64,000 bases of DNA from positions 13,129 through 77,128 of the forward strand of contig JBOGUF010000045.1 of assembly GCA_050696075.1 (NCBI GenBank). Reading direction: 5' to 3'. The translations under genes and the position numbers were made by a program. The notes beneath the pieces are model-generated. The model searched no databases, was not told the origin of the DNA, and was given only the letters and a program-made list of their open reading frames with translations. The DNA is from Thermomicrobiales bacterium. GTDB lineage: Bacteria > Chloroflexota > Chloroflexia > Thermomicrobiales > UBA6265. How positions within the stretch are numbered: the first letter of the stretch is position 1; every line of letters begins with the position of its first letter. Below are positions 1,006 through 36,700 of the stretch, one piece after another.

Positions 1006-3873
1006 TTGTCCAGCATTGCCATTCCGGTGAGTGCGCCGCGGATCGGGTCGCTTGTCAGCGCCCGCGAGCGAGACTGGGTTGTCTTGCCGGCCGCCGAAGA
1101 GAACGTCGTACGCCTCCGTCCGCTGACCGGCAGCGAGGAGGATGCGACCGGCATTTTTCTGCCGCTGGAGCGCTGGAAGAAGAGCGAGTTCTTGCCGCCA
1201 GACCCGGACCACTCCGGCGATACCCAAGGCGGTCTGCTTTTGCTCGATGCCGCGCGCCTCGCTCTTCGCGACGGTGCCGCGCCCTTCCGCTCGATGGGCC
1301 GCATCTCGGTCACTCCGCGCCCTTATCAATTCGTGCCGCTCATCATGGCGCTACGTCAAGATCCTGTGCGACTGCTCGTCGCGGACGATGTAGGAGTGGG
1401 GAAAACGATCGAAGCGGCCATGATCGCTCGCGAGATGCTCGACCGCGGCCTGGCGCAACGCCTGGCGGTCATCTGCCCCGCTCACCTCTGCGAGCAATGG
1501 GAGAAAGAGCTGCGGGAGAAGTTCGGAATCGAGGCGGCCGTTATTCAGCCTTCCCGGTTCGCCCGCCTGGAGCGCGAGCTGCCGCGCGGCGATTTGAGCG
1601 TCTTCCGCTACCACCGCCACCTCATCGCCAGCATCGACTTCGTCAAGGCCGGCGTCCACCGCCACCACTTCCTGGAGAACGCGCCCGACCTCATCATCGT
1701 CGACGAAGCGCACGTCGCCGCCCGCCCTCGCGGCGACCGCGGCCAGGTTCAGCACCAGCGCTACGAGTTCGTCCGTGGCCTTGCGTCAGACCCAACCCGC
1801 CACGTCATTCTGGTCACGGCAACGCCGCACAGCGGTATCGAGGAGAGTTTCCGCTCGCTCCTTGGCTTGCTCGACCAGCGCTTCGACGCCCATGGCCTCA
1901 ACCCGCCGCCCGAGCTCGATCGGTCTGCCCTCGTCCCGCACGTCGTTCAGCGGCGTCGCGATGACCTGGCCCACTGGCCCGGCGGTGACACGCCGTTCCC
2001 CCAGCGCGAGTCGAAGGAGCACCGCTACGCCCTCAGCGCCGACTACTACCGCCTCTTCGAGGACGTCCTCGCCTATTGTCGCGGCACGGTGGACGCCGGG
2101 CGCGGCCTGCGTGCCCAGCAGCAGCGCGTTCGCCACTGGGCCGCCATCGCCCTCCTGCGCTGCGTCCTCTCCAGCCCTGCCGCCGCTTCCTCGGTCTTGA
2201 GCGCGCGTGCCAAGCGGCTCCACGACGGAGAGGCGCCGGTCGATCTCTTCGAGTCGCCCGACGACGCCGATGCTGCTTACCGCCCGCAGGTGCTCGACGC
2301 AATCGGCGAGGAACAGGCCGGCGACTACGTCCCGGCCGCTCCTCTCGAAGACGCCGAACCCTTCCTCGACGACGCCGAGCGCCGGCGGCTTGCCGGGTTC
2401 CTGAAGGGCGCCCGTAACCTCGAAGGCCCAGTGAAGGACGCCAAGCTGGCCGAGGCTGGGAAAGCGGTCGGCGACGCCCTTCGCGACGGCTTCCGGCCGA
2501 TCGTCTTCTGCCGCTTCATCGCCACCGCCAACTATGTAGCCGCTTCGCTCGGGAAAACCCTCGGCAAGGAGTTTCCCGGCCTTCGCGCCGTCGCCGTCAC
2601 CGGCGAGATCGGCCACGAGGAGCGCCGCGCCATCATCGACGAGCTGGTTGCGGAACCCGGTCCGCGCGTCCTCGTCGCGACCGACTGCCTGAGCGAGGGG
2701 ATTAACCTCCAGGAGCACGTCGACGCCGTCCTCCATTACGATCTGCCCTGGAACCCGAACCGGCTAGAGCAGCGTGAGGGCCGCGTCGACCGCTTCGGCC
2801 AAGCCAAGCCGGTCGTCCGCGTTGGCCTCCTCTACGGCGCCGACAATCCTATCGACGGCGTCGTCCTCGACGTCCTGATCCGCAAGGCGCGGACGATCCG
2901 CAACCGGCTCGGCATCGCCATACCCGTTCCGGAAGACACCGAGCAGGTCGTCCAGGCCGTCGTCGAGAGCGTCCTCCTGCGTGGGCGCGGGCCGCAGGCC
3001 CAATTGCAGTTGGATTTCGGCGCCTCCGATGTGAGCCGCCTTCACGCGACGATGGACGCCGCCGCCGAAAAGGAGGCGAGCCAGCGCCGCTACTTCGCCC
3101 AGCGCGGTATCAAGCCGGAGGAAGTGGCCCGCGAAGTCGCCGCGACCGTTCCCGTCCTGGGCGACGAAGAAGCCGTCCAGCGCTTCCTCGCCAATGCCGC
3201 CCAGCGCCTCGCCGGTTCGCTCCGGGCGACGGGTCGCAACGGTGTCTTCGACCTCTACCCCGGCGACCTCGCCGACGACCTGGAGCGGCGCGGTTACGAG
3301 GGAAATCCGCTCCGCGTCACCTTCGACGCCCTCACCGACCCCGACGCGCATTGCCTTGGCCGCACGCATCCGGTCGTTTCCGCCTACTGCGATGCGGTCC
3401 TTGGCAAGGCGCTCGGTCCCGAGCCGGACGCACGGTTCGCGCGCTGTGGCGCGGTCTTCACCAACGCCGTCACCAGGCGCACTGCCGTTGTGCTTCTCCG
3501 GCTGCGCTATCTCCTCCGCGAGAAGGTCGAGGAGTTCGCGGAGGAGGTCGTCCTCGTCGCCATCGAGAGCCAGGGCGGTCAACCGCGTTGGATCGAGCCG
3601 CTCGATACCGCCGCCCGCGAGCTCCTGACGGCAGCAGACCGACCCGTCGCCAACATGAGTCAGTCCGAGCGCGCAGAGCACGTCCAGTGGGCGCTCGGCC
3701 TCCTTGACCGCACCCCCAGTTGCTACCAGCCGATCGTCCAGTGGCGGGTCGAGCAGCTCCAGGCGTCGCACAACCGGCTGCGCAAGCTCGTCAAGGCGTC
3801 GCCGCTCAAGGTGGATGCGCACGATCCTGACCTCCTCGGCTGCTACGTCCTCGTGCCCGGAGGGAGCCGCTGA
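1006..3873 (+). CDS. SNF2-family helicase (DISARM DrmD-like)
   Basis: The ORF in the track is 883-3873. I prefer TTG 1006, which lies 5 nt after GGGAGGA at 994-1000; GTG 1027 is an alternative. Motifs seen: Walker A LLVADDVGVGKTIEAAMIAREML, DEAH box LIIVDEAHVAARP, ILVTATPHSG, and the C-terminal helicase lobe LVATDCLSEGINLQEHVDAVLHYDLPWNPNRLEQREGRVDRFGQ. Confidence 0.85.
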   Translation: MSSIAIPVSAPRIGSLVSARERDWVVLPAAEENVVRLRPLTGSEEDATGIFLPLERWKKSEFLPPDPDHSGDTQGGLLLLDAARLALRDGAAPFRSMGRISVTPRPYQFVPLIMALRQDPVRLLVADDVGVGKTIEAAMIAREMLDRGLAQRLAVICPAHLCEQWEKELREKFGIEAAVIQPSRFARLERELPRGDLSVFRYHRHLIASIDFVKAGVHRHHFLENAPDLIIVDEAHVAARPRGDRGQVQHQRYEFVRGLASDPTRHVILVTATPHSGIEESFRSLLGLLDQRFDAHGLNPPPELDRSALVPHVVQRRRDDLAHWPGGDTPFPQRESKEHRYALSADYYRLFEDVLAYCRGTVDAGRGLRAQQQRVRHWAAIALLRCVLSSPAAASSVLSARAKRLHDGEAPVDLFESPDDADAAYRPQVLDAIGEEQAGDYVPAAPLEDAEPFLDDAERRRLAGFLKGARNLEGPVKDAKLAEAGKAVGDALRDGFRPIVFCRFIATANYVAASLGKTLGKEFPGLRAVAVTGEIGHEERRAIIDELVAEPGPRVLVATDCLSEGINLQEHVDAVLHYDLPWNPNRLEQREGRVDRFGQAKPVVRVGLLYGADNPIDGVVLDVLIRKARTIRNRLGIAIPVPEDTEQVVQAVVESVLLRGRGPQAQLQLDFGASDVSRLHATMDAAAEKEASQRRYFAQRGIKPEEVAREVAATVPVLGDEEAVQRFLANAAQRLAGSLRATGRNGVFDLYPGDLADDLERRGYEGNPLRVTFDALTDPDAHCLGRTHPVVSAYCDAVLGKALGPEPDARFARCGAVFTNAVTRRTAVVLLRLRYLLREKVEEFAEEVVLVAIESQGGQPRWIEPLDTAARELLTAADRPVANMSQSERAEHVQWALGLLDRTPSCYQPIVQWRVEQLQASHNRLRKLVKASPLKVDAHDPDLLGCYVLVPGGSR

Positions 3874-6800
3874 TGGCCTACGCCGCGATCGAGATCGAGG
3901 GTGGGCTCTTCCCGGCGGATCTGCTCGACCGGATCGCCGCCGGCGAGGGCGCCGGCCAGGCCGCGAAGGAGTTCGGCCTCGACGGCCGCCGCCTCTCCGA
4001 CGAGACGCAGGCCGCCTTCTCCGACGTCCGCTCCTACTGGGACGCCTTCCAGCGCCGCCGCGAGCACTCCCGCGAGAGTCTGACCAGTCTCACGCGGGAG
4101 AGCTGGATGATCCCCGCCCTCGAACGGCTCGGCTTCGATCTCGTCTACCAGCGTGCCGGCCTCGCGGTCGGCGCCGAGAGCTATCAGATCTCGCACCTGG
4201 CCGGCGATGATCCGTCGGCTCCGCCGCTGCATGTCGTCGCCATCGACCAGGACCTCGGCAAGAAGGAGGGCGCCCGTCGCAGTCCCCACGCCCTCGTCCA
4301 GGAGTACCTCAATCGCTCCGACGCGCTCTGGGGCATCGTCACCAACGGGGAACGACTGCGCCTCCTGCGCGACTCGAACCGCCTCTCTCGCCCCACCTAC
4401 CTTGAGTTCGATCTGCGGGGAATGATCGAGGCGAATCTCTACAGCGAGTTTGTTCTCCTCTACCGCCTCCTCCATCGGACGCGTTTTCCGCGGAGTGCTG
4501 GCGCCGCCGCCTCGTGCATTCTGGAAAGGCTCTACCAGGAAGGGCTCGACGAAGGCGGGCGCGTCCGGAAGCACCTGCGCGACGGGGTCGAGCAGGCGCT
4601 GGAGATCCTCGGCAATGCCTTCCTCTCGCACCCGGAGAGCGGAGACTTGAGAGCGGCCTTCGAGCGCGGCCATCTCGACGCCGCCCGGTACTATCGGCAG
4701 CTCCTGCGTCTCGTCTACCGCCTCCTCTTCCTCTTCGTCGCCGAGGAGCGGCGCCTCATCTTCCCGCCCGACTCGACCACGACCGATCTGCACGAGATCT
4801 ATTCGCGTTACTACAGCGCGAACCGTCTCCGCGACCGGTGCGAGCGCCCCTACGGTGGCGACCGGTTCGGTGACCTCTGGCGGGGTCTTGTGCGGACCTT
4901 CGAACTCCTCCGCGACGACGAGACCGCGAGGATGCTGGGCCTCACGGCACTCGACGGCGAGCTCTTCGGGCCGTCCGCCTGCCGGGACCTGGAGACCGCC
5001 CACTGCCACAACCGCGACCTGCTCCGGGCGATCTTCCACCTCTCGACCTTCAAGGACGAAAAGGTCCGCCGCCGCGTCAACTACGCCGGGCTCGACGTCG
5101 AGGAGCTTGGCTCCGTCTATGAGAGCCTCCTCGAATACCGCCCTGCCGTCCGTCTCGATGATCCTAGGCCGTTCCAGCTCGTCGCCGGCAGCGACCGCAA
5201 GACGACCGGCTCCTACTACACCCCGCCCGAGCTGGTCCGCGAGCTGATCGAGTCCGCGCTCGTCCCGGTCCTGAACGAGCAGCTTGCCGCCGCGAAGACG
5301 CGGGAGGAGCAGGAGCGAGCGATCCTCAGCCTGAAGGTCTGCGATCCGGCGTCCGGCTCGGGTCACTTCCTCCTCGCCGCCGCCCGCCGACTGGGAAGGG
5401 AGTTGGCGCGCGTTCGTACCGGCGAAGCCGAGCCCGCGCCCGATGCCTACCGTCTCGCCGTCCGCGACGTCATCCGCTCCTGCATCTACGCCGTCGACAA
5501 GAACCCGCTCGCCGTCGATCTCTGCAAAGTCGCCCTCTGGATCGAGGGCCACCACGCCGGCCTACCCCTTTCCTTCCTCGACTATCACATCAAACACGGC
5601 GATAGCCTGGTTGGGGTCTTTGACCTCGCGGTGCTGAGGCAGGGCATCCCGGACGATGCGTACAAGTCGGTGACCGGTGACGACAAGAAGTTTGCTATCC
5701 ACGTCCGAAAGCTCAACACGACACGGTCGCTCGACTATGCCGATGGCTTTCCAGATCTGGACGGCGAGTTCGCTCGGGAGTTCGGCGCGCTTGCGCTCCT
5801 TGATGAGCGGAATGCCAATGACGTCCGGGCGAAGGAACAGATCTACGCGCAGCTCCGCGACCCGGAGACCGTCTGGTGGACCTGGAGGCGGGCGTGCAAC
5901 CTCTGGACCGCCGCCTTCTTCGCGCCGCTTGTCGAGGACGCGCCGCGACGCTTTTCGGGATCACTCGCGCCGCTGACGGAGGACGTCCATCGAGCGCTCA
6001 CGCAGCCGAAGTCGCTCGATGCTGAAGTCGGCGGACGGGCCGACGCGCTGGCTGATCGGCTCGCCTTCTTCCATTGGCCGCTTGAGTTTCCCGAGGTATT
6101 CGAGGCCGGCGGCTTCGACGTGGTTCTCGGCAACCCGCCGTGGGAGCGGATCAAGCTGCAAGAGCAGGAGTTCTTCGCCGCGCGCGATCCGGCGATTGCC
6201 ACCGCGTCGAACAAAGCCGCGCGCCAACGCCTGATCGATCGACTACCCGAGAGCGATCCGGCGCTTGCCCGAGCGTTCGCGGACGCGAAGCACGACGCCG
6301 AGGCGGCGAGCACGTTCCTTCGCGCATCCGGCCGCTTCCCACGCACCGGCCGCGGCGACATCAACACGTACTCCGTCTTTGCCGAGCAAACGGCCCGGAT
6401 GGCGGGTCATCGCGGTCGTGGCGGCGTGCTCGTGCCGACCGGCATCGCCACCGACGACACCAACAAGCACTTCTTCCGCTGGCTGGTCGAGCACGGCCGC
6501 TTGGTCAGCCTCTTCGACTTCGAGAACCGCGAGGGGCTCTTCCCCGCGGTCGACAGCCGCATGAAGTTCTCGCTGCTGACGGTGAGCGGGGCGGAGCGGC
6601 CGGCGGCGCCATTCGAGGCCGCCTTCTTCCTCCTCCAGCCAGCCGAACTGCGCGACCCGGAAAGCCGCTTCACCCTGTCGGCGGACGACATCGCCCTCCT
6701 CAACCCGAACACCCGCACCTGCCCCATCTTCCGCTCGGCGCGGGACGCCGAGATCACCAGGGCGCTCTACCGCGCCGCGCCGGTGCTGATCAACGAGGCG

Positions 6801-8429
6801 ACCGGCGAGAACCCGTGGGGCGTCACGTTCAAGCGCATGTTGGACATGTCGAACGACTCCCACCTCTTCCGGACGCGGGCGGAGCTGGAGGGAGATGGCG
6901 CGATCCTCGGGCCGGATGGCCGGTTCCGGCGGGGCGACGAGGTGTGGGAGCGACTTTATCAAGGAATGATGTTCCAAAACTATGACCACCGAGCGGCCGA
7001 CATTGTGCATAGCGCAACGGCGGCTCAACGCCAGAATCAACCGATTGATATCTCAACCGAGGAACATAACGATTCCAGTCGCCTCGCGATACCGATGTAT
7101 TGGGTACATGAGCAGGACATCGCCGCTCGCCTGGTCGATTATTGCCGAGAGTGGTTTGTCGCATTTGCAAATGTGACCAGTCCGACGAACATGACGACGG
7201 TTAAATTGACTATCCTGCCGCGAACCGCTGCCGGTCATAGCCTTCAGCTCATACTCCCGAAAGACACAGTCAGTGCTTCACGAGTTGCTGCCCTCGCCGC
7301 CAATCTCAACTGCCTCGCCTTTGACTGGGTTACTAGGCAAAAGATTGGAGGCGTGAACCTCAGCTACTTCATCGTCAAGCAGCTTCCCGTCCTTCCGCCC
7401 GAGACCTACACCCTGGACCTGCTCGATGAGATCGTCACCCGCGTCCTGGAGCTGGTCTACACGGCGCACGACCTGGTGCCCTTCGCGCGGGACTGCGGCT
7501 GCGACGGCCCGCCGTTCGACTGGGACGAGGAGCGGCGGGCGCAACTGCGGGCGGAGCTGGACGGCATCTACGCTCATCTCTACGGGCTGAACCGTGACGA
7601 CTTCGCCTACATCCTTGGCACCTTCCCTGTGCTGGAGAAGAACGAGCGAAAGGCGTTCGGGGAGTACCGCACCAAGCGCCTCTGCCTCGACGCCTATGAC
7701 CGCTTCACCGATCTGAGCGGTGAGGCTGCCGCCGCGGTGCGCCACGTCTTCGTGTTGCCCGAGGCTCCAGCCCGACCGGAGCCTGTCGCCGGCCTGATGG
7801 CCGCCGAGCCTCCGCCCTCTCCATACGATGCGCGGGCGGACGAATCGCCCAGTGTGACCGGCCACGACCGCTACCGGCAGGCGGCTGTCGTGGCGTGGCT
7901 CGCGAACCAAAGCGCGGGCGATCCGACTTTCGGCCGCACCAAGCTCGCCAAGGAGCTCTACTTCCTTCAAGAGCACCTTGGGGTCGATCTCAACCTCGAA
8001 TTCGTCCGCGAGGCCGCCGGTCCGCTCGATCCGAAGCTCTATCCCGTCGAGGGCCTGGCGCAAAAGCAGAGCTGGTTGACCGTCACCAAGCAGCGCCGAA
8101 TCGTCCGCTACCGGCCGGGCCGCAAGGCGGCCGAAGCGGACGGCGTCGCGCTCCGCTTCCTCTCCGACCGCCTCGCCGACGTCGAGGCACTGGTGACCTT
8201 CTTCCGTCCCTTCGACTGGCTCACCATCGAGCAGTGGGCAACCGTCCATCAGGTCTGGCGCCAGCGCCGCGAGCAAGGGCAGCCGCTGACGAAGTCGGCC
8301 ATCCTCGACGAGGTCCTCGCCTGGAAGCCGTCCCGCAGCGGCTTTGACCGGCGCTCGATCGCGCAGGTCATCGACGCGATGATCGAGCATGGATTTGTCG
8401 CGCTGCCCGATCATCAACCGCGCACATGA
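3873..8429 (+). CDS. large Eco57I-type (gamma-class) N6-adenine DNA methyltransferase with extra C-terminal domain (DISARM DrmMI-like)
   Basis: 1518-aa ORF whose ATG overlaps the SNF2 stop (TGATG at 3871-3875). Motif order is GSYYTPPELV, then motif I VCDPASGSGHFLLAAARRLG, then motif IV VLGNPPWERIK (NPPW). The tail LDGIYAHLYGLNRDDFAYILGTFPVLEKNERKAFGEYRTKRLCLDAYD is, from memory, typical of this long MTase family. A Pro-rich linker (~7740-7865) precedes a separate ~190-aa C-terminal domain. Confidence 0.85.
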   Translation: MAYAAIEIEGGLFPADLLDRIAAGEGAGQAAKEFGLDGRRLSDETQAAFSDVRSYWDAFQRRREHSRESLTSLTRESWMIPALERLGFDLVYQRAGLAVGAESYQISHLAGDDPSAPPLHVVAIDQDLGKKEGARRSPHALVQEYLNRSDALWGIVTNGERLRLLRDSNRLSRPTYLEFDLRGMIEANLYSEFVLLYRLLHRTRFPRSAGAAASCILERLYQEGLDEGGRVRKHLRDGVEQALEILGNAFLSHPESGDLRAAFERGHLDAARYYRQLLRLVYRLLFLFVAEERRLIFPPDSTTTDLHEIYSRYYSANRLRDRCERPYGGDRFGDLWRGLVRTFELLRDDETARMLGLTALDGELFGPSACRDLETAHCHNRDLLRAIFHLSTFKDEKVRRRVNYAGLDVEELGSVYESLLEYRPAVRLDDPRPFQLVAGSDRKTTGSYYTPPELVRELIESALVPVLNEQLAAAKTREEQERAILSLKVCDPASGSGHFLLAAARRLGRELARVRTGEAEPAPDAYRLAVRDVIRSCIYAVDKNPLAVDLCKVALWIEGHHAGLPLSFLDYHIKHGDSLVGVFDLAVLRQGIPDDAYKSVTGDDKKFAIHVRKLNTTRSLDYADGFPDLDGEFAREFGALALLDERNANDVRAKEQIYAQLRDPETVWWTWRRACNLWTAAFFAPLVEDAPRRFSGSLAPLTEDVHRALTQPKSLDAEVGGRADALADRLAFFHWPLEFPEVFEAGGFDVVLGNPPWERIKLQEQEFFAARDPAIATASNKAARQRLIDRLPESDPALARAFADAKHDAEAASTFLRASGRFPRTGRGDINTYSVFAEQTARMAGHRGRGGVLVPTGIATDDTNKHFFRWLVEHGRLVSLFDFENREGLFPAVDSRMKFSLLTVSGAERPAAPFEAAFFLLQPAELRDPESRFTLSADDIALLNPNTRTCPIFRSARDAEITRALYRAAPVLINEATGENPWGVTFKRMLDMSNDSHLFRTRAELEGDGAILGPDGRFRRGDEVWERLYQGMMFQNYDHRAADIVHSATAAQRQNQPIDISTEEHNDSSRLAIPMYWVHEQDIAARLVDYCREWFVAFANVTSPTNMTTVKLTILPRTAAGHSLQLILPKDTVSASRVAALAANLNCLAFDWVTRQKIGGVNLSYFIVKQLPVLPPETYTLDLLDEIVTRVLELVYTAHDLVPFARDCGCDGPPFDWDEERRAQLRAELDGIYAHLYGLNRDDFAYILGTFPVLEKNERKAFGEYRTKRLCLDAYDRFTDLSGEAAAAVRHVFVLPEAPARPEPVAGLMAAEPPPSPYDARADESPSVTGHDRYRQAAVVAWLANQSAGDPTFGRTKLAKELYFLQEHLGVDLNLEFVREAAGPLDPKLYPVEGLAQKQSWLTVTKQRRIVRYRPGRKAAEADGVALRFLSDRLADVEALVTFFRPFDWLTIEQWATVHQVWRQRREQGQPLTKSAILDEVLAWKPSRSGFDRRSIAQVIDAMIEHGFVALPDHQPRT

Positions 8430-8438
8430 TGGGAAGGA

Positions 8439-9335
8439 TCATTGGGACGGTCGCCACGAGCCGCGCACTGCGTGCCAGCGCGCATCGTCCTCCGGTTCGC
8501 CGCTTAGGACGGGATCAAGAAAGTCAGCGGCCAGCCGGTGTCCGGTCGCAAGGTCCGGTTCGAGTCCGACCTCCGTGGCGAGCCGTCGATACACAGTTGC
8601 CCAGCTCGACGGCGGGGATGGAAGTGCCGCGGGAATGGCGTGCGTTCCCCTGGCGGTGAAGGTGACGTCGAGTGCGTGCCGCAAGCGGCCTGCCTCGAAG
8701 TCGGCGGCAGAGCGGATCAGGACCAGGTCGATGAGGTCTTTGACCCGCGAGCTGGGGTGTTGCCCGCCAAAGGTGCGCGTGTAGGCGTGAACCTTCTCGG
8801 CGAGATGTTGTTCAAGGGGCAGCGCCGGGACCTCGATCGGTTCGAACCCCGCAAAGCCGAAGAAATCCGGTCCGTGCAGGCGATCAGGCGTGCCAACCAG
8901 TGGATCGCCGAATCCGACGTCGATGATCGCGTCCTCAAAGCGGCGGCCGTCGAGTCCGGCCGTGACGTGGTAGCGCACGGCGGCGCCTTCGAGATCGGGG
9001 TCCATCTTTCCTTGCCGCTCGATCTCGAACGTGAAGAAATCGCCGAGGTCGAGCGATTGGGCGGCGATGAGGTCCGTGGTCGCCGCCTCCTCGCTGTCCT
9101 GACGGGCAAGGTCCAGATCCCTGGTGGTGCGGGCACGGTCGCCGAGCCGCAGGTCCAGGGCCAGGCCGCCCTTGACGATCCATCGATCCGGGGCGACGAC
9201 GAGCAGGCGAGCCAGCAGGCGGTCGAAGACGACCATCTTACGCAGGCGCCCGAGCGCACGCTGGTCCTGCCGAGCCGCCGTATTGAGCCGCTGTTCCAGC
9301 GCGGCGCGGAACGCGGTCGCGGTGGCGTACCTCAT
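8439..9335 (-). CDS. abiEii: AbiEii/AbiGii-family nucleotidyltransferase toxin (type IV TA)
   Basis: 298 aa. The N-terminus MRYATATAFRAALEQRLNTAARQ...LRKMVVFDRLLARLL...WIVKGGLALDLRLGDRARTTRDLDLA is the characteristic AbiEii/DUF1814 nucleotidyltransferase fold signature. It overlaps the upstream antitoxin gene by 4 nt. Confidence 0.8.
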   Translation of the reverse strand: MRYATATAFRAALEQRLNTAARQDQRALGRLRKMVVFDRLLARLLVVAPDRWIVKGGLALDLRLGDRARTTRDLDLARQDSEEAATTDLIAAQSLDLGDFFTFEIERQGKMDPDLEGAAVRYHVTAGLDGRRFEDAIIDVGFGDPLVGTPDRLHGPDFFGFAGFEPIEVPALPLEQHLAEKVHAYTRTFGGQHPSSRVKDLIDLVLIRSAADFEAGRLRHALDVTFTARGTHAIPAALPSPPSSWATVYRRLATEVGLEPDLATGHRLAADFLDPVLSGEPEDDARWHAVRGSWRPSQ

Positions 9336-9934
9336 CTCGTCACCTGGTCGATGGCGCCGGCAATGAGACGGGCAACGCGTTGGCTCCGCTCCAGGGCGGC
9401 CTGCCGGAGCAGCGTGCGGGTCGTCAGTCCCCGTTCGATGGCCTGCCTGACCGCGAGCTCGATTTGCTCCGGGCCGATGCCCACCTCGGCCGCGTCGAGA
9501 ATCGTCCGTGTGGCCGACGTGAGCCGAATGCCGTCGCGGACAGCGATGTCGCCCGGCTGGAGGGACTTGGACGTGGTGTGGATAGTCAGACCCGGCAGCG
9601 TCGCCAGATAACGCTTCGAGCGCGGCACCGTGAGGTGGATGCTATCAGGGATCACGTCGCTCAGGCCGTACAGGTCGAGCGCGCTCTCGTGCGACACCAC
9701 GGCCACGTCCTTGCCGACGGCGAGCCAGGCGGCGGCGACCTCGTCCCGCGGCGAGGACGGGTAGTCGCGAAAGCGATAGAGCCCTCGGTGGGTTCGAGTA
9801 AACTTACCGCTTCGCGTATGATATGTGAGCAGATTCCAGTTGAAACCGCAGGCACGGGCTTGTGCGGTTGTAAAGTAACCGTGCTGCCCGGACGCGGTCG
9901 CGAAGAGGCAGGAAAGATCTGGGTCGCTGGCCAT
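9332..9934 (-). CDS. abiEi: AbiEi-family antitoxin / transcriptional regulator
   Basis: The track ORF is 9332-9973. The N-terminal wHTH-type segment SGQHGYFTTAQARACGFNWNLLTYHTRSGKFTRTHRGLYRF is typical of AbiEi_4. I prefer the ATG at 9934 (MASDPDL...) because the 9946 and 9973 starts would place an inverted repeat inside the coding region. Confidence 0.75.
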   Translation of the reverse strand: MASDPDLSCLFATASGQHGYFTTAQARACGFNWNLLTYHTRSGKFTRTHRGLYRFRDYPSSPRDEVAAAWLAVGKDVAVVSHESALDLYGLSDVIPDSIHLTVPRSKRYLATLPGLTIHTTSKSLQPGDIAVRDGIRLTSATRTILDAAEVGIGPEQIELAVRQAIERGLTTRTLLRQAALERSQRVARLIAGAIDQVTR

Positions 9935-9944
9935 CGTGTCATCC

Positions 9945-9969
9945 ATTCCTTCAGTATATTTGAAGGAAT
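9945..9969. promoter_or_regulatory. perfect 9-bp inverted repeat (ATTCCTTCA-N7-TGAAGGAAT), candidate AbiEi operator in the abiE / helicase divergent region
   Basis: Read directly from the sequence: ATTCCTTCA at 9945-9953, spacer GTATATT, TGAAGGAAT at 9961-9969. It sits in the only AT-rich patch between the abiEi start and the helicase start (10026). AbiEi proteins are known autorepressors that bind inverted repeats. Confidence 0.35.
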
Positions 9970-10025
9970 CCATGACAGACCAGGACCAGCGAAACCTACT
10001 GCAATGTGGGACCGGGAGGGTAAGG

Positions 10026-13000
10026 ATGTCGCTTGACGTTTTCGCGCTCCGCGATCGCGTCGTCGGCGAGTATCGCGACTACTTCGAGAGCTTCGTCCGC
10101 ATCCTCGACGAGCGGATCGACGGCTTCGTCCGCGATTCGCTCCGCGACGGCGAGCTCTGGCCCGACGCCGTCCTCCAGCTCAACCCCGCCTACGAGCGCG
10201 GACAGACGCTCGGCGAGTTAGCCAATCAGGGTCTTATCGCCCGCGAGACTGCCCGGTTCTTCGGCCCCAACTTGCGGCTCCACAGGCACCAGGAGGAGGC
10301 GCTCGGCATCGCCCAGTGCAGCGAGCCCTACATCGTCAGCACCGGGACCGGCTCCGGCAAGAGCCTCACCTATCTCCTGCCCATCGTCGACCATGTCTTT
10401 CGTCACAACCCTGATCGCCCGACGGTTCGCGCGGTCATCGTCTACCCGATGAACGCTTTGGTAAACAGCCAGATCGACGCGCTCGAACACTTCAAGCGGG
10501 AGAACTGGCCGGACAGTCCGCTCCACTTTGCCCGCTACACCGGCCAGGAGCGTGACGCGGAGCGCGAGGCGATCATCAACAACCCGCCGCACATCCTCCT
10601 CACCAATTACGTCATGCTGGAGTACATGCTCCTCCGCCCCCACGAGCGGACGCTGCTCCGGACCGCGACCAAGGAGCTGAGCTTCCTCGTCATCGACGAG
10701 CTGCATGTCTACCGTGGCCGCCAGGGCGCCGACGTTGCGATGCTCACGCGTCGCGTTCGTCAGAAGGCGGGTCAGGACATCCAGCTCGTCGGCACCAGCG
10801 CCACGATCGCGACCGGCGGCTCCCGCGACGATCGCCAGGCGCGCATCGCCGACGTCGGTTCAACCCTCTTCGGCGTCCGCGTTCCTGCCGCGAACGTCGT
10901 GGACGAGACGCTCCAGCGGATCGCCGCCGTTGCCGTCCCGAGGACCCAAGCGGAGTTGCGCACGGCAGTGCAGTTGCCGCCGCCCGCGCCGTCGGATGCC
11001 GGCGTGCGGAACCACCCGCTCGCCGCCTGGCTCGAAGAGACGTTCGGCCTCCAAGAGGAAGACGGGCGCCTGATCCGGCGAGAGCCGGTCACCTTCACCG
11101 ATGGTCTCAAGCGGCTGGTTGAGGCAAGCGGTTTGCCGACGGATCTTTGTCGCGAGCGCCTCATGGCTGCCCTGGAGGCAGGGAATGCCGTCCGCACCAA
11201 TACCGGCGATCCGCTCTTTGCCTTCCGCCTCCACCAATTCCTCGCCTCAGGCAGCAGCGTCTACGCGACGATCGAGCAGCCCGACAGCCGCCAGCTCACA
11301 CTTGCAGGGCAGTTCGTCGCGCCGGACGAAGACGATATCGAGGAAGGGAGCGCCGGTGAGCAGCCAAAGCTCCTCTATCCGCTGGCCTTCTGCCGCGACT
11401 GCGGCCAGGAGTATTACCTGGTCTCTCGCGCCGATCTCGACGGTGGCGAGCGCCTGCTCCCCCGCCTCCCGCTCCTGAACGCTCCGGACGACGAATTACC
11501 CGGCATGTACGGTTTCTTCGCTGTGGAGACCGGCGACCTCTGGCCCGAGGAAACGCCCGGCGATACTCGCCGCCTGACCCAACTTCCCGAGTTCTGGTTC
11601 GAGCAGCGCAAATCCGGACCGAAGGTTCGGCAGCGGTACGAGGAGCACATTCCGCTTGAGCTATGGGCGCATCCCAGCGGCGCCGTCAGCTGGGAGCCGG
11701 TGCAGGGCGCGGTTCATGGTTGGTTCCAGGCACGTCCCTTGATGCTGTGCCTTCGCTGCCGTGCCAGCTACACCCTTAGAGACAAGAGCGACTTCCGCAA
11801 GCTCGCCACCCTCAGTCAGACCGGGCGCTCGACCGCAACGACCATCCTGAGCAATGCCGCGGTCGGCGGGCTCCGGGCGGCCCATCCCGAGGACCGCGGT
11901 GGCAACAAGGTCCTCAGCTTCACCGACAACCGCCAGGATGCCTCCCTCCAGGCGGGCCATCTCAATGACTTCGCGCAAATTACGCTCCTGCGTGGCGCCC
12001 TCTCCCGTGCGCTGACCGAGCAAGACGAGTTGACCTTTTCGCGGCTCGGTCCCGCGATCCTTGCCGCGCTCGGTCCCAAGCCCGAGGAGTTCATGCGGGA
12101 ACCGGTTGACTCCGGTCCAGGACACGACAGCGCGCGGGCCGTGATGGTCAATCTCCTCACGTACCGGGCATTTGAGGATCTTCGGCGCGCCTGGCGGATT
12201 GCCCAGCCGAATCTCGAACAGGTTGGGTTGCTCTCGCTCCGCTACGCGGGAATGGAGGAGCTTGCCCTTGATGATGCGCGCTGGTCCGACGTGCCGGTAT
12301 TGGCAGCCGCGAGCGGTCATAAGCGGTGGGAGGTTCTTCAGGCGATCCTCGATCACCTTCGTGGACTGCTCGTCATCGACGCCGAGTGCCTCCAAGCCGA
12401 GAGCACCCGCGAGTTGGTCAATCGAGCCAACCAATGGCTACGCACGCCCTGGTCGATCGATCGCCGCGAGCGGCTGCGGGAAAGCGTCATCGCGCGACTG
12501 CCCGGCATAGGCATGCCCGAGCACGACCGGGACTCAACGATCGGCCTCAGTTACCGTTCTACATTAGGACGCTACCTTCGCTCCCGCCACACCTGGGATC
12601 TGCCGAGCGATCTCTCGGCAACCGATGTGGATGCGATGGTGCTCGGCATCGTCGCCGTGTTGCGCGGCCACGTTCTTACCGTTGTTACGAAGGATGGGGA
12701 GGACTACGGCGTCCAGATCAAGGCGGACGTGGTCCGCTGGCAGCGCGGCGATGGCCGAGCCGCGGGCCTCGATCCGGTCCGCGCCAGGGCTCTCCATAAG
12801 CGGCGCCTGGAGATGCTCTCGACCGAACCGAACGCGTTTTTCTCGCGCCTCTATCAAGAGCCATCTCGCCTTCTCGCGGGTATCACCGGCGCCGAGCACA
12901 CCGGCCAGGTTGACAGGGAGACCCGGTTGGTGCGCGAGCGTGAGTTCAAAGCCGGGCAACTGGCCGCGATGTTCTGCTCGCCGACGATGGAGCTGGGCGT

Positions 13001-15194
13001 CGACATTTCGGACCTCGGCGTCGTCCACATGCGCAACGTCCCGCGCACGCCCGCCAACTACGCGCAACGCAGCGGGCGTGCCGGCCGTGGCGGAAAGCCG
13101 GCGCTCGTCCTCACCTTCGCCAGCCAGGGCAACGCGCACGACCAGTACTTCTTCCGTCGGCGGCAGGCGATGATCGCCGGATCCGTCGCACCTAATCGCA
13201 TGGATCTCGGCAACCGGGAGCTGGTCGAGGCGCACCTCCACTCCGTCTGGCTCGCCGCAATTGGTCTCTCCCTGGGCAATTCGGTCGCCGATGTCCTCGA
13301 CCTCGGCCAGCTGAACTTCCCGATCGAGGCTGAGAAGTGGGCGAATCTGCTTCGGACGACGGAGAGCCATCGGTCCGATGTCGTTGCCGCTTTCCGCGAG
13401 ATCACCGCCGCCGACCCGACCATTACCTCCGCCGACTGGTTTACCGACGAATGGCTGGTCCAGACCGTCAGGGACGCGCCCGACGCGTTGAATGTTGCCT
13501 TTGAGCGTTGGCGCGATCTGTACCGGGCCGCTGTCGCCCTCCGCGACGAGGCCCGCCGCAAGATCGATCTGCCGCGATTGCCGCGAAAAGATCGCCAGGA
13601 CGCCGAACGCCAGGAGCAGGAAGCGAAACGCGAAGTCGATCTCCTCTTGAATCAGGGCGATTACACCGAATCGGACTTCTACCCCTATCGCTACCTCGCA
13701 ACCGAAGGCTTCCTCCCCGGCTACAACTTCCCGCGATTGCCACTCCGCGTCTTGGTCTCAGTGCGGGACAGCGCCCAATCGATCGATAGGCCGCGCTTTC
13801 TCGGCCTCTCTGAGTTCGGTCCCTGGAATGTCATCTACCATGAGGGGCGCAAGCACCGCGTATCGTCCTGTATCGTGCCTCCGGGCGGTTTCGACGCCCG
13901 CATCACCAGCGCCCGGCTCTGCAACGAGTGCGGCTACGTCCATCCCGCCAGCGAGGGACCGGTCGATCTCTGCGTCTGTTGCGGCACGATCCTCGATGCG
14001 AAGACATCTGAGTATCCACAGGCACTGCTGGAGCAGCCGACGGCGAAAGCACGCCAGCAGGAGCGGATCTCCTCAGATGAGGAGGAACGTGCCCGCGAGG
14101 GGTATCACATTACGACCCACTACCGCTTCTCGCCGGGGGCGAGTGCCCGTCGTGCCGAGGCGCGAGACGCCTCCGGCGAATGGTCGCTCCTGGAGATCGA
14201 ATACGCGCCTCGTGCGGAGCTTTGGCGCATCAACCACGGCTGGCGTCGATCCGCGGCGCGGGCCGGGTTTACGATCGATGCCGAACGTGGCCGGTGGGGT
14301 AAGCGCGAGGACGACGATCTTGAAGGTGAAAACGGAGACGAGCCAGGACTCCAGACCGTGAGAACCGGGGTCAAGACCTACGTCACCGACAGCCGCAACA
14401 TCCTCCTGTTGCGCCCCATTGCTCCCTCCGCACAGAACGAGGCATTCCTGAAGAGCCTTGCCTTCGCCTTGCAGCGAGGCATCCAGGTGGCATACCAGGT
14501 CGAGGAGAGCGAAGTCGCCATTGAGCTGATCGGCGAAGGCAGCCACCTTCGATTGCTACTCTGGGAAGCCGCGGAGGGCGGCACTGGTGTTTGGGAGCGA
14601 ATGTTGGAGGAGCCGGACTCGTTCGCCGAAGTCGCGAAGGAGGCGCTCCAGGTCTGTCACTTCGATCCAGAGACCGGAGAGCCGGATGCGGAATGGGGCC
14701 GCCGCTGCAAGTACGCTTGCTATGACTGCCTGCTCAGCTACAGCAATCAGTTGGAACACCGATTCCTCAACCGGCATCTTGTCAAGGACTATCTCCGTGA
14801 ACTAGCCACGTCGAGAGTCCAGAGTGCGACGGCGGGCCGCCCCTATGACGAGCAGTACCGATGGCTGCTCGACCGCATCGACCCGGCTTCCAGCCTGGAA
14901 CGCGAGTTCGTCGCATTCCTCCATGCGGAGAAGCTTCGCTTGCCGGACTTCGCCCAGCACCGGCCGCGCTCCGACGTGCCTGTCCAACCAGACTTCTACT
15001 ACGAACGCGATGGTCTGAACGGAGTCTGTGTCTTTGTCGACGGCCCTCACCACGACACCCCAACTCAAACAGCCAAGGACCAGGAGCTACGAGATGCCCT
15101 CGCTGACGAAGGCTTTCGCGTCGTCGTCATCCGGCACGGCCGACCCTTCGACGAGCAGGTCGCACGATACCCCGACGTGTTCGGCCCCGGTTGA
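10026..15194 (+). CDS. giant DExH helicase fused to a DUF1998/MZB-type zinc domain and a C-terminal DUF559/Vsr-like PD-(D/E)xK domain (DrmA+DrmB-like or DruE-like)
   Basis: The track ORF is 9936-15194. I prefer ATG 10026, which follows GGGAGGG at 10013-10019.
- Helicase core: Walker A IVSTGTGSGKSLTYLLP, DExH FLVIDELHVYRG, LVGTSATIA.
- A distant RecA2 lobe: FCSPTMELGVDISDLGVVHMRNVPRTPANYAQRSGRAGRGGK.
- DUF1998-type segment: YRYLATEGFLPGYNFPRLP followed by CNECGYV...CVCCG.
- C-terminus: VQPDFYYERDGLNGVCVFVDGPHHDTPTQTAKDQELRDALADEGFRVVVIRH. Confidence 0.85.
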   Translation: MSLDVFALRDRVVGEYRDYFESFVRILDERIDGFVRDSLRDGELWPDAVLQLNPAYERGQTLGELANQGLIARETARFFGPNLRLHRHQEEALGIAQCSEPYIVSTGTGSGKSLTYLLPIVDHVFRHNPDRPTVRAVIVYPMNALVNSQIDALEHFKRENWPDSPLHFARYTGQERDAEREAIINNPPHILLTNYVMLEYMLLRPHERTLLRTATKELSFLVIDELHVYRGRQGADVAMLTRRVRQKAGQDIQLVGTSATIATGGSRDDRQARIADVGSTLFGVRVPAANVVDETLQRIAAVAVPRTQAELRTAVQLPPPAPSDAGVRNHPLAAWLEETFGLQEEDGRLIRREPVTFTDGLKRLVEASGLPTDLCRERLMAALEAGNAVRTNTGDPLFAFRLHQFLASGSSVYATIEQPDSRQLTLAGQFVAPDEDDIEEGSAGEQPKLLYPLAFCRDCGQEYYLVSRADLDGGERLLPRLPLLNAPDDELPGMYGFFAVETGDLWPEETPGDTRRLTQLPEFWFEQRKSGPKVRQRYEEHIPLELWAHPSGAVSWEPVQGAVHGWFQARPLMLCLRCRASYTLRDKSDFRKLATLSQTGRSTATTILSNAAVGGLRAAHPEDRGGNKVLSFTDNRQDASLQAGHLNDFAQITLLRGALSRALTEQDELTFSRLGPAILAALGPKPEEFMREPVDSGPGHDSARAVMVNLLTYRAFEDLRRAWRIAQPNLEQVGLLSLRYAGMEELALDDARWSDVPVLAAASGHKRWEVLQAILDHLRGLLVIDAECLQAESTRELVNRANQWLRTPWSIDRRERLRESVIARLPGIGMPEHDRDSTIGLSYRSTLGRYLRSRHTWDLPSDLSATDVDAMVLGIVAVLRGHVLTVVTKDGEDYGVQIKADVVRWQRGDGRAAGLDPVRARALHKRRLEMLSTEPNAFFSRLYQEPSRLLAGITGAEHTGQVDRETRLVREREFKAGQLAAMFCSPTMELGVDISDLGVVHMRNVPRTPANYAQRSGRAGRGGKPALVLTFASQGNAHDQYFFRRRQAMIAGSVAPNRMDLGNRELVEAHLHSVWLAAIGLSLGNSVADVLDLGQLNFPIEAEKWANLLRTTESHRSDVVAAFREITAADPTITSADWFTDEWLVQTVRDAPDALNVAFERWRDLYRAAVALRDEARRKIDLPRLPRKDRQDAERQEQEAKREVDLLLNQGDYTESDFYPYRYLATEGFLPGYNFPRLPLRVLVSVRDSAQSIDRPRFLGLSEFGPWNVIYHEGRKHRVSSCIVPPGGFDARITSARLCNECGYVHPASEGPVDLCVCCGTILDAKTSEYPQALLEQPTAKARQQERISSDEEERAREGYHITTHYRFSPGASARRAEARDASGEWSLLEIEYAPRAELWRINHGWRRSAARAGFTIDAERGRWGKREDDDLEGENGDEPGLQTVRTGVKTYVTDSRNILLLRPIAPSAQNEAFLKSLAFALQRGIQVAYQVEESEVAIELIGEGSHLRLLLWEAAEGGTGVWERMLEEPDSFAEVAKEALQVCHFDPETGEPDAEWGRRCKYACYDCLLSYSNQLEHRFLNRHLVKDYLRELATSRVQSATAGRPYDEQYRWLLDRIDPASSLEREFVAFLHAEKLRLPDFAQHRPRSDVPVQPDFYYERDGLNGVCVFVDGPHHDTPTQTAKDQELRDALADEGFRVVVIRHGRPFDEQVARYPDVFGPG

Positions 15195-18334: not shown

Positions 18335-18363
18335 TTGACATAGTACGATCTTTCCCTTATCAT
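18335..18363 (+). promoter_or_regulatory. sigma70-type promoter (TTGACA-17-TATCAT) reading rightward into the XRE-recombinase operon
   Basis: TTGACA is at 18335-18340, followed by a 17-nt spacer and TATCAT at 18358-18363. It is arranged back-to-back with the leftward promoter. Confidence 0.45.
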
Positions 18364-18424
18364 GTTACCGGCAACGTTCGGGCAGATGACGCAACGATGC
18401 GACATCGCGGGAGGTGTGACGGGG

Positions 18425-18667
18425 ATGCACGTGGACGGGGGGCTGTTGCGCCGGGCGCGGATTCGGCGCGCGCTCTCCCAGGCCGAGCTCGCCGAGGCGG
18501 CCGGCATCAACCGGATGACGGTCAGTCGGCTGGAGATGGGACGGGGGGAAGCGGTCCAGGCGGCGACGCTGCGCAAGCTTGCCGGCACGCTCGATGTCGA
18601 GCCAGGGGACTTGATTGACTGGCCAGCCGAGGAAAGCCGCGGGCAGGTGGCCGACCGCAGCAATTGA
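18425..18667 (+). CDS. XRE-family helix-turn-helix transcriptional regulator
   Basis: LLRRARIRRALSQAELAEAAGINRMTVSRLEMGRGEAVQAATLRKLAGTLDV is a classic HTH_3/XRE motif. The track start at 18362 overlaps the -10 box. I prefer ATG 18425, downstream of GGGAGG at 18409-18414; 18386 is also possible. Confidence 0.75.
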   Translation: MHVDGGLLRRARIRRALSQAELAEAAGINRMTVSRLEMGRGEAVQAATLRKLAGTLDVEPGDLIDWPAEESRGQVADRSN

Positions 18668-18687
18668 CCGCAGTAAGGACGGCAGCT

Positions 18688-36336: not shown

Positions 36337-36700
36337 TGGTGGAGATGGGGGGAGTCGAACCCCCGTCCAGAATCGTTAGCCGAGCATATCCTACACGCGT
36401 AGTCGGTGTTTTGTGTGCCGACGCGAACCCCCACCGACAGGGTTTCGTGACGGTGAGTCGGACTGCCTTTGATGGACGCGCTCCGACGGACTAGCCCATC
36501 GCATCCGGCCTTGGTGACGCCCGCTGCCGGTCCCGGCCGAAGGAGGTCCGGGCGGACGCGCTACCTAGAGGTCAGTGACTTAGGCAGCGTAAGCAAGTTC
36601 TTGAGTCTTGCCATTTCTGGTGGTGCCCATTTTTACGAGGGCCTGGGCGCCTCGGCGTGCAACACTCTGACCTAGGACCCTGTCGAAACCAAACATCCCC
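36337..36700 (-). ncRNA. ssrA: tmRNA (SsrA), one-piece
   Basis: The 5' end GGGGATGTTTGGTTTCGACAGGG pairs with the 3' end GGACGGGGGTTCGACTCCCCCCATCTCCACCA. This gives an acceptor stem with a G3-U pair, a T-arm and an encoded CCA. An internal tag frame reads ...GGC ACC ACC AGA AAT GGC AAG ACT CAA GAA CTT GCT TAC GCT GCC TAA (...GTTRNGKTQELAYAA-stop). It lies immediately downstream of smpB. Confidence 0.9.

Follow-up and report, generated by a model that had tools for sequence, protein, structure and literature searches.

A probable ARMADA Type I defence locus with an embedded AbiE pair on a serine-integrase element of a Thermomicrobiales bacterium

The window described here is a 64-kb stretch of a contig (JBOGUF010000045.1) from a Thermomicrobiales bacterium of the phylum Chloroflexota, and the subject of this report is a cluster of three giant genes in its left part. 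The cluster is very probably an intact ARMADA Type I system, arranged in the order armA-armB-armC, with an independent AbiE insert, and carried on a serine-integrase element beside a tRNA-Asp gene. ARMADA was named by Bell et al. 2025 (bioRxiv), who described it as the link that had been missing between DISARM and Druantia (PMC12458937). The system is composed of ArmA, a BrxHII/RapA-like SNF2 helicase, ArmB, a PglX-like methyltransferase, and ArmC, a YprA helicase nearest to DruE with fused OB-CON-DUF1998 domains, a C-terminal Vsr-type PD-(D/E)xK nuclease, and no separate phospholipase D (PLD) protein (PMC12458937). Type II adds ArmD, a RelE-GajB-like helicase (PMC12458937). The usual gene order in Type I is armC-armA-armB, and armA-armB-armC is a known minority order, found in many archaea and cyanobacteria (PMC12458937).

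A first-pass annotation, made from the sequence alone, had placed three very large co-oriented genes in this region. All three were recovered as open reading frames (ORFs) on the plus strand at 1006–3873, 3873–8429, and 10026–15194, and the translations were identical to the NCBI proteins MGH2531570.1, MGH2531571.1, and MGH2531574.1 of a Thermomicrobiales metagenome-assembled genome. The start of armA was assigned to a TTG codon at 1006, located 5 nt past a ribosome-binding site (GGGAGGA); the longest ORF begins at 883. The stop codon of armA and the start codon of armB overlapped in the sequence TGATG at 3871–3875, as had been read in the first pass. The arm genes and their parts are as follows.

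1006..3873, plus strand: armA, BrxHII/RapA-like SNF2 helicase of 955 amino acids (aa), with Pfam SNF2-rel_dom and Helicase_C (MGH2531570.1)
3873..8429, plus strand: armB, PglX/DrmMI-like N6-adenine methyltransferase of 1518 aa, with Pfam Eco57I (MGH2531571.1)
6132..6143, plus strand: NPPW motif of ArmB (aa 754–757)
7872..8426, plus strand: C-terminal add-on of ArmB (aa 1334–1518), helical/winged-helix and similar to the C-terminal domain of DarG
10026..15194, plus strand: armC, YprA-family DExH helicase with OB-CON-DUF1998 and a putative C-terminal nuclease, 1722 aa (MGH2531574.1)
11391..11759, plus strand: two CxxC pairs of ArmC (C456/C459 and C575/C578) in the RecA1-RecA2 insertion
13686..13982, plus strand: OB/connector and zinc ribbon of ArmC (CNEC...CVCC), with C1299, C1302, C1316, and C1319 invariant
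14460..14732, plus strand: DUF1998/MZB of ArmC (aa 1479–1569; Pfam MZB 2.6e-7), with the invariant Cys cluster C1561/C1565/C1568
14883..15191, plus strand: putative Vsr/DUF559-type PD-(D/E)xK nuclease domain of ArmC, assigned from Pfam matches of orthologues and conserved residues

ArmC contained the DEAD domain (aa 87–262, 2.7e-24), the Helicase_C domain (aa 951–1023), and the MZB domain (aa 1479–1569) in one ORF, in agreement with the earlier view that the helicase and the DUF1998 module form a single polypeptide. The helicase motifs GSGKS and DELH were intact. In PADLOC, ArmC matched DruE3 (5.7e-89), followed by DruE1 and DruE2 down to 3.4e-69, each in 3–6 stretches, and DrmA was matched at 2e-15. 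The best NCBIfam match of ArmC was the DECH_helic model TIGR03817, with 134 bits against a cut-off of 874, and the DrmA models gave 15–20 bits against cut-offs of 950–999. The giant helicase had been called DruE-like in the first pass, and in this comparison of profiles it sided with DruE and not with the repair helicases.

In the helicases of ARMADA, RecA1 and RecA2 are separated by insertions of the BrxA-like, beta-barrel zinc-binding, and MarR-like kinds (PMC12458937). In ArmC, an insertion of ~690 aa, known from sequence, separates RecA1 from RecA2, and the CxxC pairs C456/C459 and C575/C578 within it were unchanged in 24 homologues. By position and pattern, these pairs appear to fit the beta-barrel zinc-binding module of ARMADA and Druantia helicases (PMC12458937). 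The OB region of ArmC had a single zinc ribbon, and one zinc-ribbon insertion in this region is the stated Type I pattern (PMC12458937). The strings YRYLATEGFLPGYNFPR, CNECGYV, and CVCCG, which had been taken as the DUF1998 segment, are real (aa 1221–1320), but they are located 5' of the MZB match, in the OB/connector region and the zinc ribbon. The Cys cluster of the DUF1998 module is CKYACYDC at aa 1561–1568.

The C-terminus of ArmC (aa ~1620–1722) contained, in this order, the segments LEREF, LRLPD, QPDFYYE, VCVFVDGPHHD, LRDAL, and GFRVVVIR, and makes up the one C-terminal domain assigned as a nuclease. Residues D1656, D1672, and H1676 were nearly invariant among the 24 homologues. The corresponding C-termini of 16 orthologues matched Pfam DUF559 in 13 cases (best 6e-6) and MTES_1575 in 8 cases. 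The top match in the PDB profile search was the Vsr-like protein 3R3P, with an E-value of 0.21. The AlphaFold2 model of the domain had a predicted local distance difference test (pLDDT) score of 87.7, and its matches in Foldseek were weak and almost all PD-(D/E)xK nucleases. The domain is predicted to be a Vsr-type nuclease typical of the family. Extra or altered C-termini were noted in several orthologues of ArmC. A TIR_2 domain was located past the nuclease in P0064, and SLFN/AlbA_2 was located there in P0063, P0065, P0070, and P0075–P0077; P0013 is listed in the same group. The C-terminus of GIW10805.1 was frameshifted and did not contain the nuclease.

The Walker A motif (GVGKT) and the DEAH motif of ArmA were intact. 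In PADLOC-DB 2.0.0, ArmA matched the 'DpdE' model PDLC02853 over its full length (2e-184) and also matched DrmD (2.8e-94) and BrxHII. The NCBIfam scores were 350 bits for DrmD (cut-off 610) and 187 bits for DpdE (cut-off 500), with RapA at 7e-41. The model labelled 'DpdE' matched ArmA far better than any DrmD model. It apparently captures the ArmA proteins of ARMADA, and mis-annotation could follow. In related loci, the ArmA homologue adjoins the helicase gene.

ArmB had the S-adenosylmethionine (SAM) motif DPASGSGHF at aa 491–499 and the NPPW motif at aa 754–757. It matched Eco57I (4.9e-16) and N6_Mtase (6.5e-6) in Pfam, and DrmMI (3.8e-80) in PADLOC. The first-pass assignment of an NPPW adenine methyltransferase was sound, and so was the likeness of the SNF2 protein and the methyltransferase to DrmD and DrmMI. 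The equivalent of the NPPW motif in ArmB of E. coli ARMADA II was needed for defence (N971A; PMC12458937). Related loci retained the N-terminal 430 aa of ArmB in 48 cases and its middle part in 34 cases.

Relatives of ArmC number in the thousands, and many of them are ~1700 aa long and 54–67% identical. Two relatives, GIW10805.1 (P0005, 67%) and MBI3979122.1 (P0010, 62%), are listed in Table S1 as 'ARMADA Type I helicase' (PMC12458937), and the placement of ArmC in the Type I clade is by proxy, via these two proteins. For the survey of related loci, a scan of genome contigs with the single helicase returned 2 loci, its single-sequence patterns being too specific, and a further 80 loci came from metagenome contigs scanned on the basis of an alignment; the window proteins were run by tblastn over 85 loci. 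A locus was taken as informative when at least 3.5 kb was present on both flanks of the helicase. SNF2 and/or methyltransferase homologues were adjacent and co-oriented in 26 of the 26 informative loci, and the linkage of the three genes, for which the first pass had proposed such a survey, was borne out. The 'helicase-only' loci were each truncated on at least one side. When all three genes were present (48 loci), the order was armC-armA-armB in 38, armA-armB-armC in 9, and armB-armC-armA in 1. All relatives of at least 54% identity whose upstream flank was present shared the armA-armB-armC order of the window.

Three long contigs had the SNF2 and methyltransferase homologues 5' of the helicase, and no PLD gene was called in them. 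One was tightly packed, another had an AbiEi-AbiEii pair just 5' of the SNF2 gene, and in the third the methyltransferase region was fragmented around an IS200-type transposase gene. No PLD family match was found among the gap ORFs scanned in the related loci. In the window, the HxKxxxxD motif (PLD/HKD) occurred 0 times in six-frame ORFs of at least 120 aa over the whole 64 kb, consistent with the first-pass statement that no PLD-type gene is present. The neighbours of the related loci included CRISPR-Cas, CBASS, and toxin-antitoxin genes. A megablast search of the whole cluster against plasmids returned short fragments only.

When the cluster was compared with ARMADA Type I, it shared the three-gene core, the fused OB-CON-DUF1998, one predicted C-terminal Vsr-type nuclease, and the lack of PLD and ArmD. 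It differed in having the minority gene order, here in Chloroflexota, in the opposite-strand AbiE pair between armB and armC, and in the DarG-like C-terminal domain of ArmB. When compared with ARMADA Type II (E. coli armABCD), which is experimentally validated (PMC12458937, PMC13463889), the armA-armB-armC order and the three protein types were the same. However, ArmD is absent, ArmC has one putative Vsr domain and none of the extra EEP and Vsr domains of Type II, the OB region has one zinc ribbon and not two, and the helicase belongs to the other subclade per Table S1. No ArmD-like gene was found 3' of armC, where the ORFs had no Pfam match, and a UvrD-like tblastn query gave 0 matches in the window. 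DefenseFinder already calls ARMADA II (PMC13463889). The first-pass proposal of an intermediate between DISARM and Druantia was correct in substance, but the system is not undescribed, having been published as ARMADA with close relatives of this helicase in Table S1 (PMC12458937). Likewise, among the four features that had been called non-canonical, the missing PLD, the fusion of helicase and DUF1998, and the C-terminal domain of the helicase define ARMADA, whereas the AbiE pair and the tail of the methyltransferase are local or lineage-specific. Of the extra terminal domains, the predicted Vsr-type nuclease of the helicase is a trait of the ARMADA family.

The tail of ArmB (aa 1334–1518) matched the NCBIfam model of DarG at positions 168–337 of 338 (E 7.9e-6). 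The AlphaFold2 model of the tail (pLDDT 83.8) was matched best in the PDB by chains B and D of 7YK3, the M. tuberculosis DarTG complex, with a probability of 1.0 and TM values of 0.57–0.65. The tail had no meaningful match when PDB sequences were searched with phmmer, and the isolated ArmB N-terminus, ArmB C-terminus, and ArmC C-terminus gave no Pfam match even at E = 10. The tail was absent from the 85 related loci, and a word-based search gave four relatives only. In loci L086 and L087, the domain was present as a stand-alone gene of 325 aa (P0131, L086:8001–8978) that comes directly after armB and ahead of hicA-hicB, with armC next in line. A full HMMER scan gave 1127 cluster representatives with the domain, always in a C-terminal position. 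In this family of ~185-aa domains (P0134–P0280), the bearers are almost always restriction-modification subunits with a specificity function. The top 90 members included 65 type I HsdS subunits and a few MmeI-/Eco57I-type methyltransferases, and no Pfam model for the domain itself was found on any of the 90. The C-terminal domain of DarG can bind and inhibit the DarT toxin, and DUF4065 is related to this domain (PMC13621843). An assignment of the ArmB tail to Panacea/DUF4065 was unconfirmed, with 0 of the 90 family members matching that Pfam model; the sole DUF4065 link of the tail is via the C-terminal domain of DarG. The C-terminal add-on of ArmB appears to be lineage-specific, unlike the nuclease extension of ArmC.

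The armB and armC genes were separated by an AbiE pair on the minus strand, and the first-pass observation that such a pair splits the cluster was correct.

8439..9335, minus strand: abiEii, nucleotidyltransferase toxin of 298 aa (Pfam AbiEii 7e-28; PADLOC 3.8e-92 over the full length)
9332..9973, minus strand: abiEi, antitoxin/transcriptional regulator of 213 aa (Pfam AbiEi_4 9.9e-10; PADLOC 4.6e-64)
9937..9977, no strand: inverted repeat with 17-nt arms, 88% complementary, and a 7-nt spacer, spanning the abiEi start

As in the AbiE type IV toxin-antitoxin/abortive infection system, both components matched over their full length and the two genes had the typical 4-nt overlap (ATGA). The pair differs from that system in being embedded in opposite orientation inside another defence operon. 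The abiEi and armC genes were divergent, with a 52-bp spacer. The inverted repeat at 9937–9977 (TGTCATCCATTCCTTCA / TGAAGGAATCCATGACA) contains an alternative abiEi start within its left arm, and it may be an AbiEi operator. Because the opposite-strand AbiE pair breaks the co-transcription of armAB and armC, armC would need its own promoter.

AbiE-type genes were also present at other ARMADA Type I loci (L005; L025, as DUF6577 and AbiEii; L047, with GmrSD; L054; and L067), and HicAB was located between arm genes in L086 and L087. The other cargo at the junctions of the arm genes consisted of AAA_14/DUF4143 ATPases (L038, L050, and L051), a deaminase fusion (L050), Fic (L069), UvrD with DUF3800 (L070), IS200 transposases, a SAM methyltransferase, and a TPR protein. 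The place and orientation of AbiE differed among loci, and most ARMADA loci had no toxin-antitoxin pair. The cargo varies across loci in position and orientation. On the simplest reading, the junctions of ARMADA Type I are permissive for insertions, and AbiE travels there as an independent passenger. A UvrD-family helicase gene was observed beside the arm genes in L070 (15444–18306, in the armC-armA gap, with DUF3800), L075, L016, and L055. These genes recall ArmD of Type II, and the boundary between Type I and Type II may be less sharp than gene content implies.

The cluster shares homology with components of DISARM, Druantia, and Dpd, and by curated criteria it belongs to none of them. Class 1 DISARM reportedly consists of DrmD, DrmMI, DrmA, DrmB, and DrmC (Ofir et al. 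2018). A degenerate or non-canonical class 1 DISARM, in which DrmD and DrmMI were kept, DrmA and DrmB were fused, and DrmC was lost, would account for the homologous SNF2 and adenine-methyltransferase partners (DrmD 2.8e-94 in PADLOC and 350 bits for DISARM_DrmD in NCBIfam; DrmMI 3.8e-80) and for a YprA-family helicase with a DUF1998 module. This explanation is very unlikely. No NCBIfam DISARM cut-off was reached (DrmD 350 against 610 bits, DrmA 15–20 against 950–999 bits), and ArmA ranks as a homologue of DrmD and not as an equivalog. The helicase is far nearer to DruE than to DrmA. In addition, the helicase and DUF1998 form one polypeptide, the HKD motif was not found, and the nuclease would be a fused Vsr type and not a separate PLD. 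Because the same architecture is kept across dozens of loci, the cluster does not look like a decayed DISARM. The nearness to DruE (5.7e-89 to 3.4e-69 for the top PADLOC matches DruE3, DruE1, and DruE2) would also suit a variant of Druantia with an SNF2 protein and a methyltransferase as the partners of DruE in place of DruH or DruA-D, and Druantia type III (DruH-DruE) has the same kind of giant YprA helicase, with clade-typical insertions and a presumed role as a helicase-nuclease effector. However, these matches were fragmentary, with 3–6 stretches each, and the C-terminus is Vsr/DUF559-like where Druantia III-A has PLD. Partners of the DruH, DruA-D, or DruM/DruF/DruG kind were looked for among the neighbours; the only large ones were the SNF2 and methyltransferase genes, no gene of DruH size was present, and the downstream ORFs had no family match. 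Close relatives of the cluster are classed as ARMADA (PMC12458937), and a Druantia variant is even less probable than a decayed DISARM. As for Dpd, the NCBIfam models of DpdE (187 against 500 bits) and DpdJ (80 against 800 bits) stayed below their cut-offs, and no 7-deazaguanine genes (dpdA-C) were found among the neighbouring ORFs checked against Pfam, in which no explicit dpdA-C scan was made. The least probable account, and a very unlikely one, is a DNA-repair helicase of the MrfA/YprA type that merely has an SNF2 protein and an unrelated type IIG-like restriction-modification gene as neighbours. Repair helicases of this type have ~750–800 aa and occur with or without the MrfB exonuclease. 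Many homologues of ArmC are labelled 'ATP-dependent helicase YprA (DUF1998 family)' by JGI, and TIGR03817 ranks first in NCBIfam, but with 134 bits against a cut-off of 874. ArmC exceeds MrfA more than twofold in length, with defence-clade insertions and a putative nuclease, and the linkage to the SNF2 and methyltransferase genes held in 26/26 informative loci. Furthermore, the gene lies on an integrase-bearing island, and its relatives adjoin CRISPR-Cas, CBASS, and toxin-antitoxin genes.

A different question is whether the locus is an extended ARMADA variant in which the AbiE pair and the DarG-like tail of ArmB have a function; the antitoxin-like tail or AbiEi might, for example, couple the activity of the system, or the expression of armC, to a toxin. 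This is compatible with an ARMADA Type I assignment, and it is considered unlikely. It would fit the recurrence of toxin-antitoxin modules in or beside Type I clusters (AbiE in the window, L005, L025, L047, L054, and L067; HicAB in L086/L087), the stand-alone form of the tail directly 5' of HicAB in L086/L087, the resemblance of the tail to the toxin-binding C-terminal domain of DarG, and the 52-bp divergent spacer of abiEi and armC beside the inverted repeat. However, the cargo at the junctions was heterogeneous (GmrSD, AAA_14/DUF4143, deaminase, Fic, UvrD with DUF3800, and IS200), and the variable place and orientation of AbiE, with most loci free of a toxin-antitoxin pair, fit opportunistic insertion at a permissive site. 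The tail domain, moreover, is chiefly found on type I HsdS subunits, where there is no toxin context. With the same low probability, the toxin-antitoxin content would not be accidental and ArmB would have captured an antitoxin-type tail, a domain otherwise found on HsdS C-termini (~1,100 representatives) and belonging to no Pfam family. If the tail restrained a toxin or nuclease such as AbiEii, ArmC, or another partner, or sensed anti-restriction proteins, specificity subunits would be linked to toxin control, and a regulatory layer common to type I restriction-modification and ARMADA, so far undescribed, would come into view.

Several points weigh against the ARMADA Type I assignment or narrow it. 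The C-terminal domain of ArmC in the window was itself below significance for every Pfam nuclease model, the best Foldseek match of its model had an E-value of only 4.7e-3, and the nuclease assignment depends on the orthologues and the conserved residues. The exclusion of Type II is based on gene content and the published table (PMC12458937), not on a tree with E. coli ArmC. The experimental tests of ARMADA in the searched literature concern Type II, and the activity of Type I is a prediction (PMC12458937, PMC13463889); methylation and cleavage in this organism are likewise predicted. The promoter that armC would require was not found in a consensus scan, which gave one site, 5' of armA, a number at chance level.

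In E. coli ARMADA II, every arm gene was required, and defence was lost when the Walker A/B motifs of ArmA or ArmC or the NPPW motif of ArmB were mutated (PMC12458937, PMC13463889). The protection was non-abortive, and phages with hypermodified DNA escaped it (PMC12458937, PMC13463889). What was established here for the Thermomicrobiales cluster is its gene content, its motifs, its placement in a family, and the conserved linkage of its genes. Its biochemical steps are likely to follow those suggested by the genetics of E. coli ARMADA II and by the related DISARM, Druantia, and MrfA proteins. ArmB, as a PglX-like N6-adenine methyltransferase, would mark the host DNA and/or provide sequence recognition, and the SNF2 translocase ArmA would work with ArmB on double-stranded DNA. 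ArmC would be the effector, whose YprA-type motor may load on single-stranded or forked parts of unmodified invading DNA beneath a canopy formed by OB-CON-DUF1998. The C-terminal Vsr-type PD-(D/E)xK nuclease would then cut the invading DNA, and the defence would be direct and not abortive. The PLD gene would be missing because the task of DrmC, the separate PLD nuclease of DISARM, falls to this fused nuclease. AbiE would most likely have a role of its own, either in abortive infection as a second line of defence or as an addiction module of the island.

The value of the result lies mostly in correct filing: what could pass for a decayed DISARM or an unusual Druantia is, on the evidence above, very probably a standard ARMADA Type I. 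Older hidden Markov model sets mislabel its parts; PADLOC-DB 2.0.0 gives 'DpdE' for ArmA and 'DruE' for ArmC, and no NCBIfam cut-off was reached. The cluster adds a case from Chloroflexota (Thermomicrobiales) with a gene order like that of Type II, and together with the related loci it suggests that the junctions of arm genes tolerate inserted defence and toxin-antitoxin cargo. As a compact, intact three-gene Type I locus with all motifs, it could serve as a test construct.

The carriage of the cluster on a mobile element, which had been proposed in the first pass, was supported by a serine integrase and a tRNA-Asp gene 3' of the cluster. Downstream of armC, small ORFs with no family match were followed by the features below.

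18362..18667, plus strand: helix-turn-helix transcriptional regulator (PHROGs regulator/repressor families, best 1.3e-10), directly 5' of the integrase gene
18664..20532, plus strand: large serine recombinase (integrase), with Pfam Resolvase (4.9e-37), Recombinase, and Zn_ribbon_recom; phrog_95 at 6e-101 over aa 12–488
20241..20316, minus strand: tRNA-Asp(GTC), canonical sequence (ARAGORN)

The tRNA-Asp gene falls within the low-complexity tail of the integrase ORF, which comprises ~130 codons past aa ~488. This arrangement suggests that the integrase ORF crosses the junction of element and host and that integration may change the C-terminus of the integrase. The GC content was ~0.66 across the first 20 kb of the window and ~0.61 beyond. 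The right end of the island is likely at ~20.2 kb, because the tRNA-Asp gene is located there and the GC content falls beyond 20 kb. For the tRNA-Asp region, neither direct repeats nor att-like duplicates were found within the window, where the search gave chance 13-mers only, and the left end of the island is probably off the window. Two small genes were observed at the cut left edge (8–789), one with a TubC_N-like docking domain (3.8e-8) and the other with an FDXHR zinc-binding domain of phage type (3.1e-6; two uncharacterized PHROGs families). Both probably belong to this mobile element as well. In addition, a tmRNA gene unrelated to the cluster, with the tag peptide GKTQELAYAA, was located at 36337–36700 on the minus strand.

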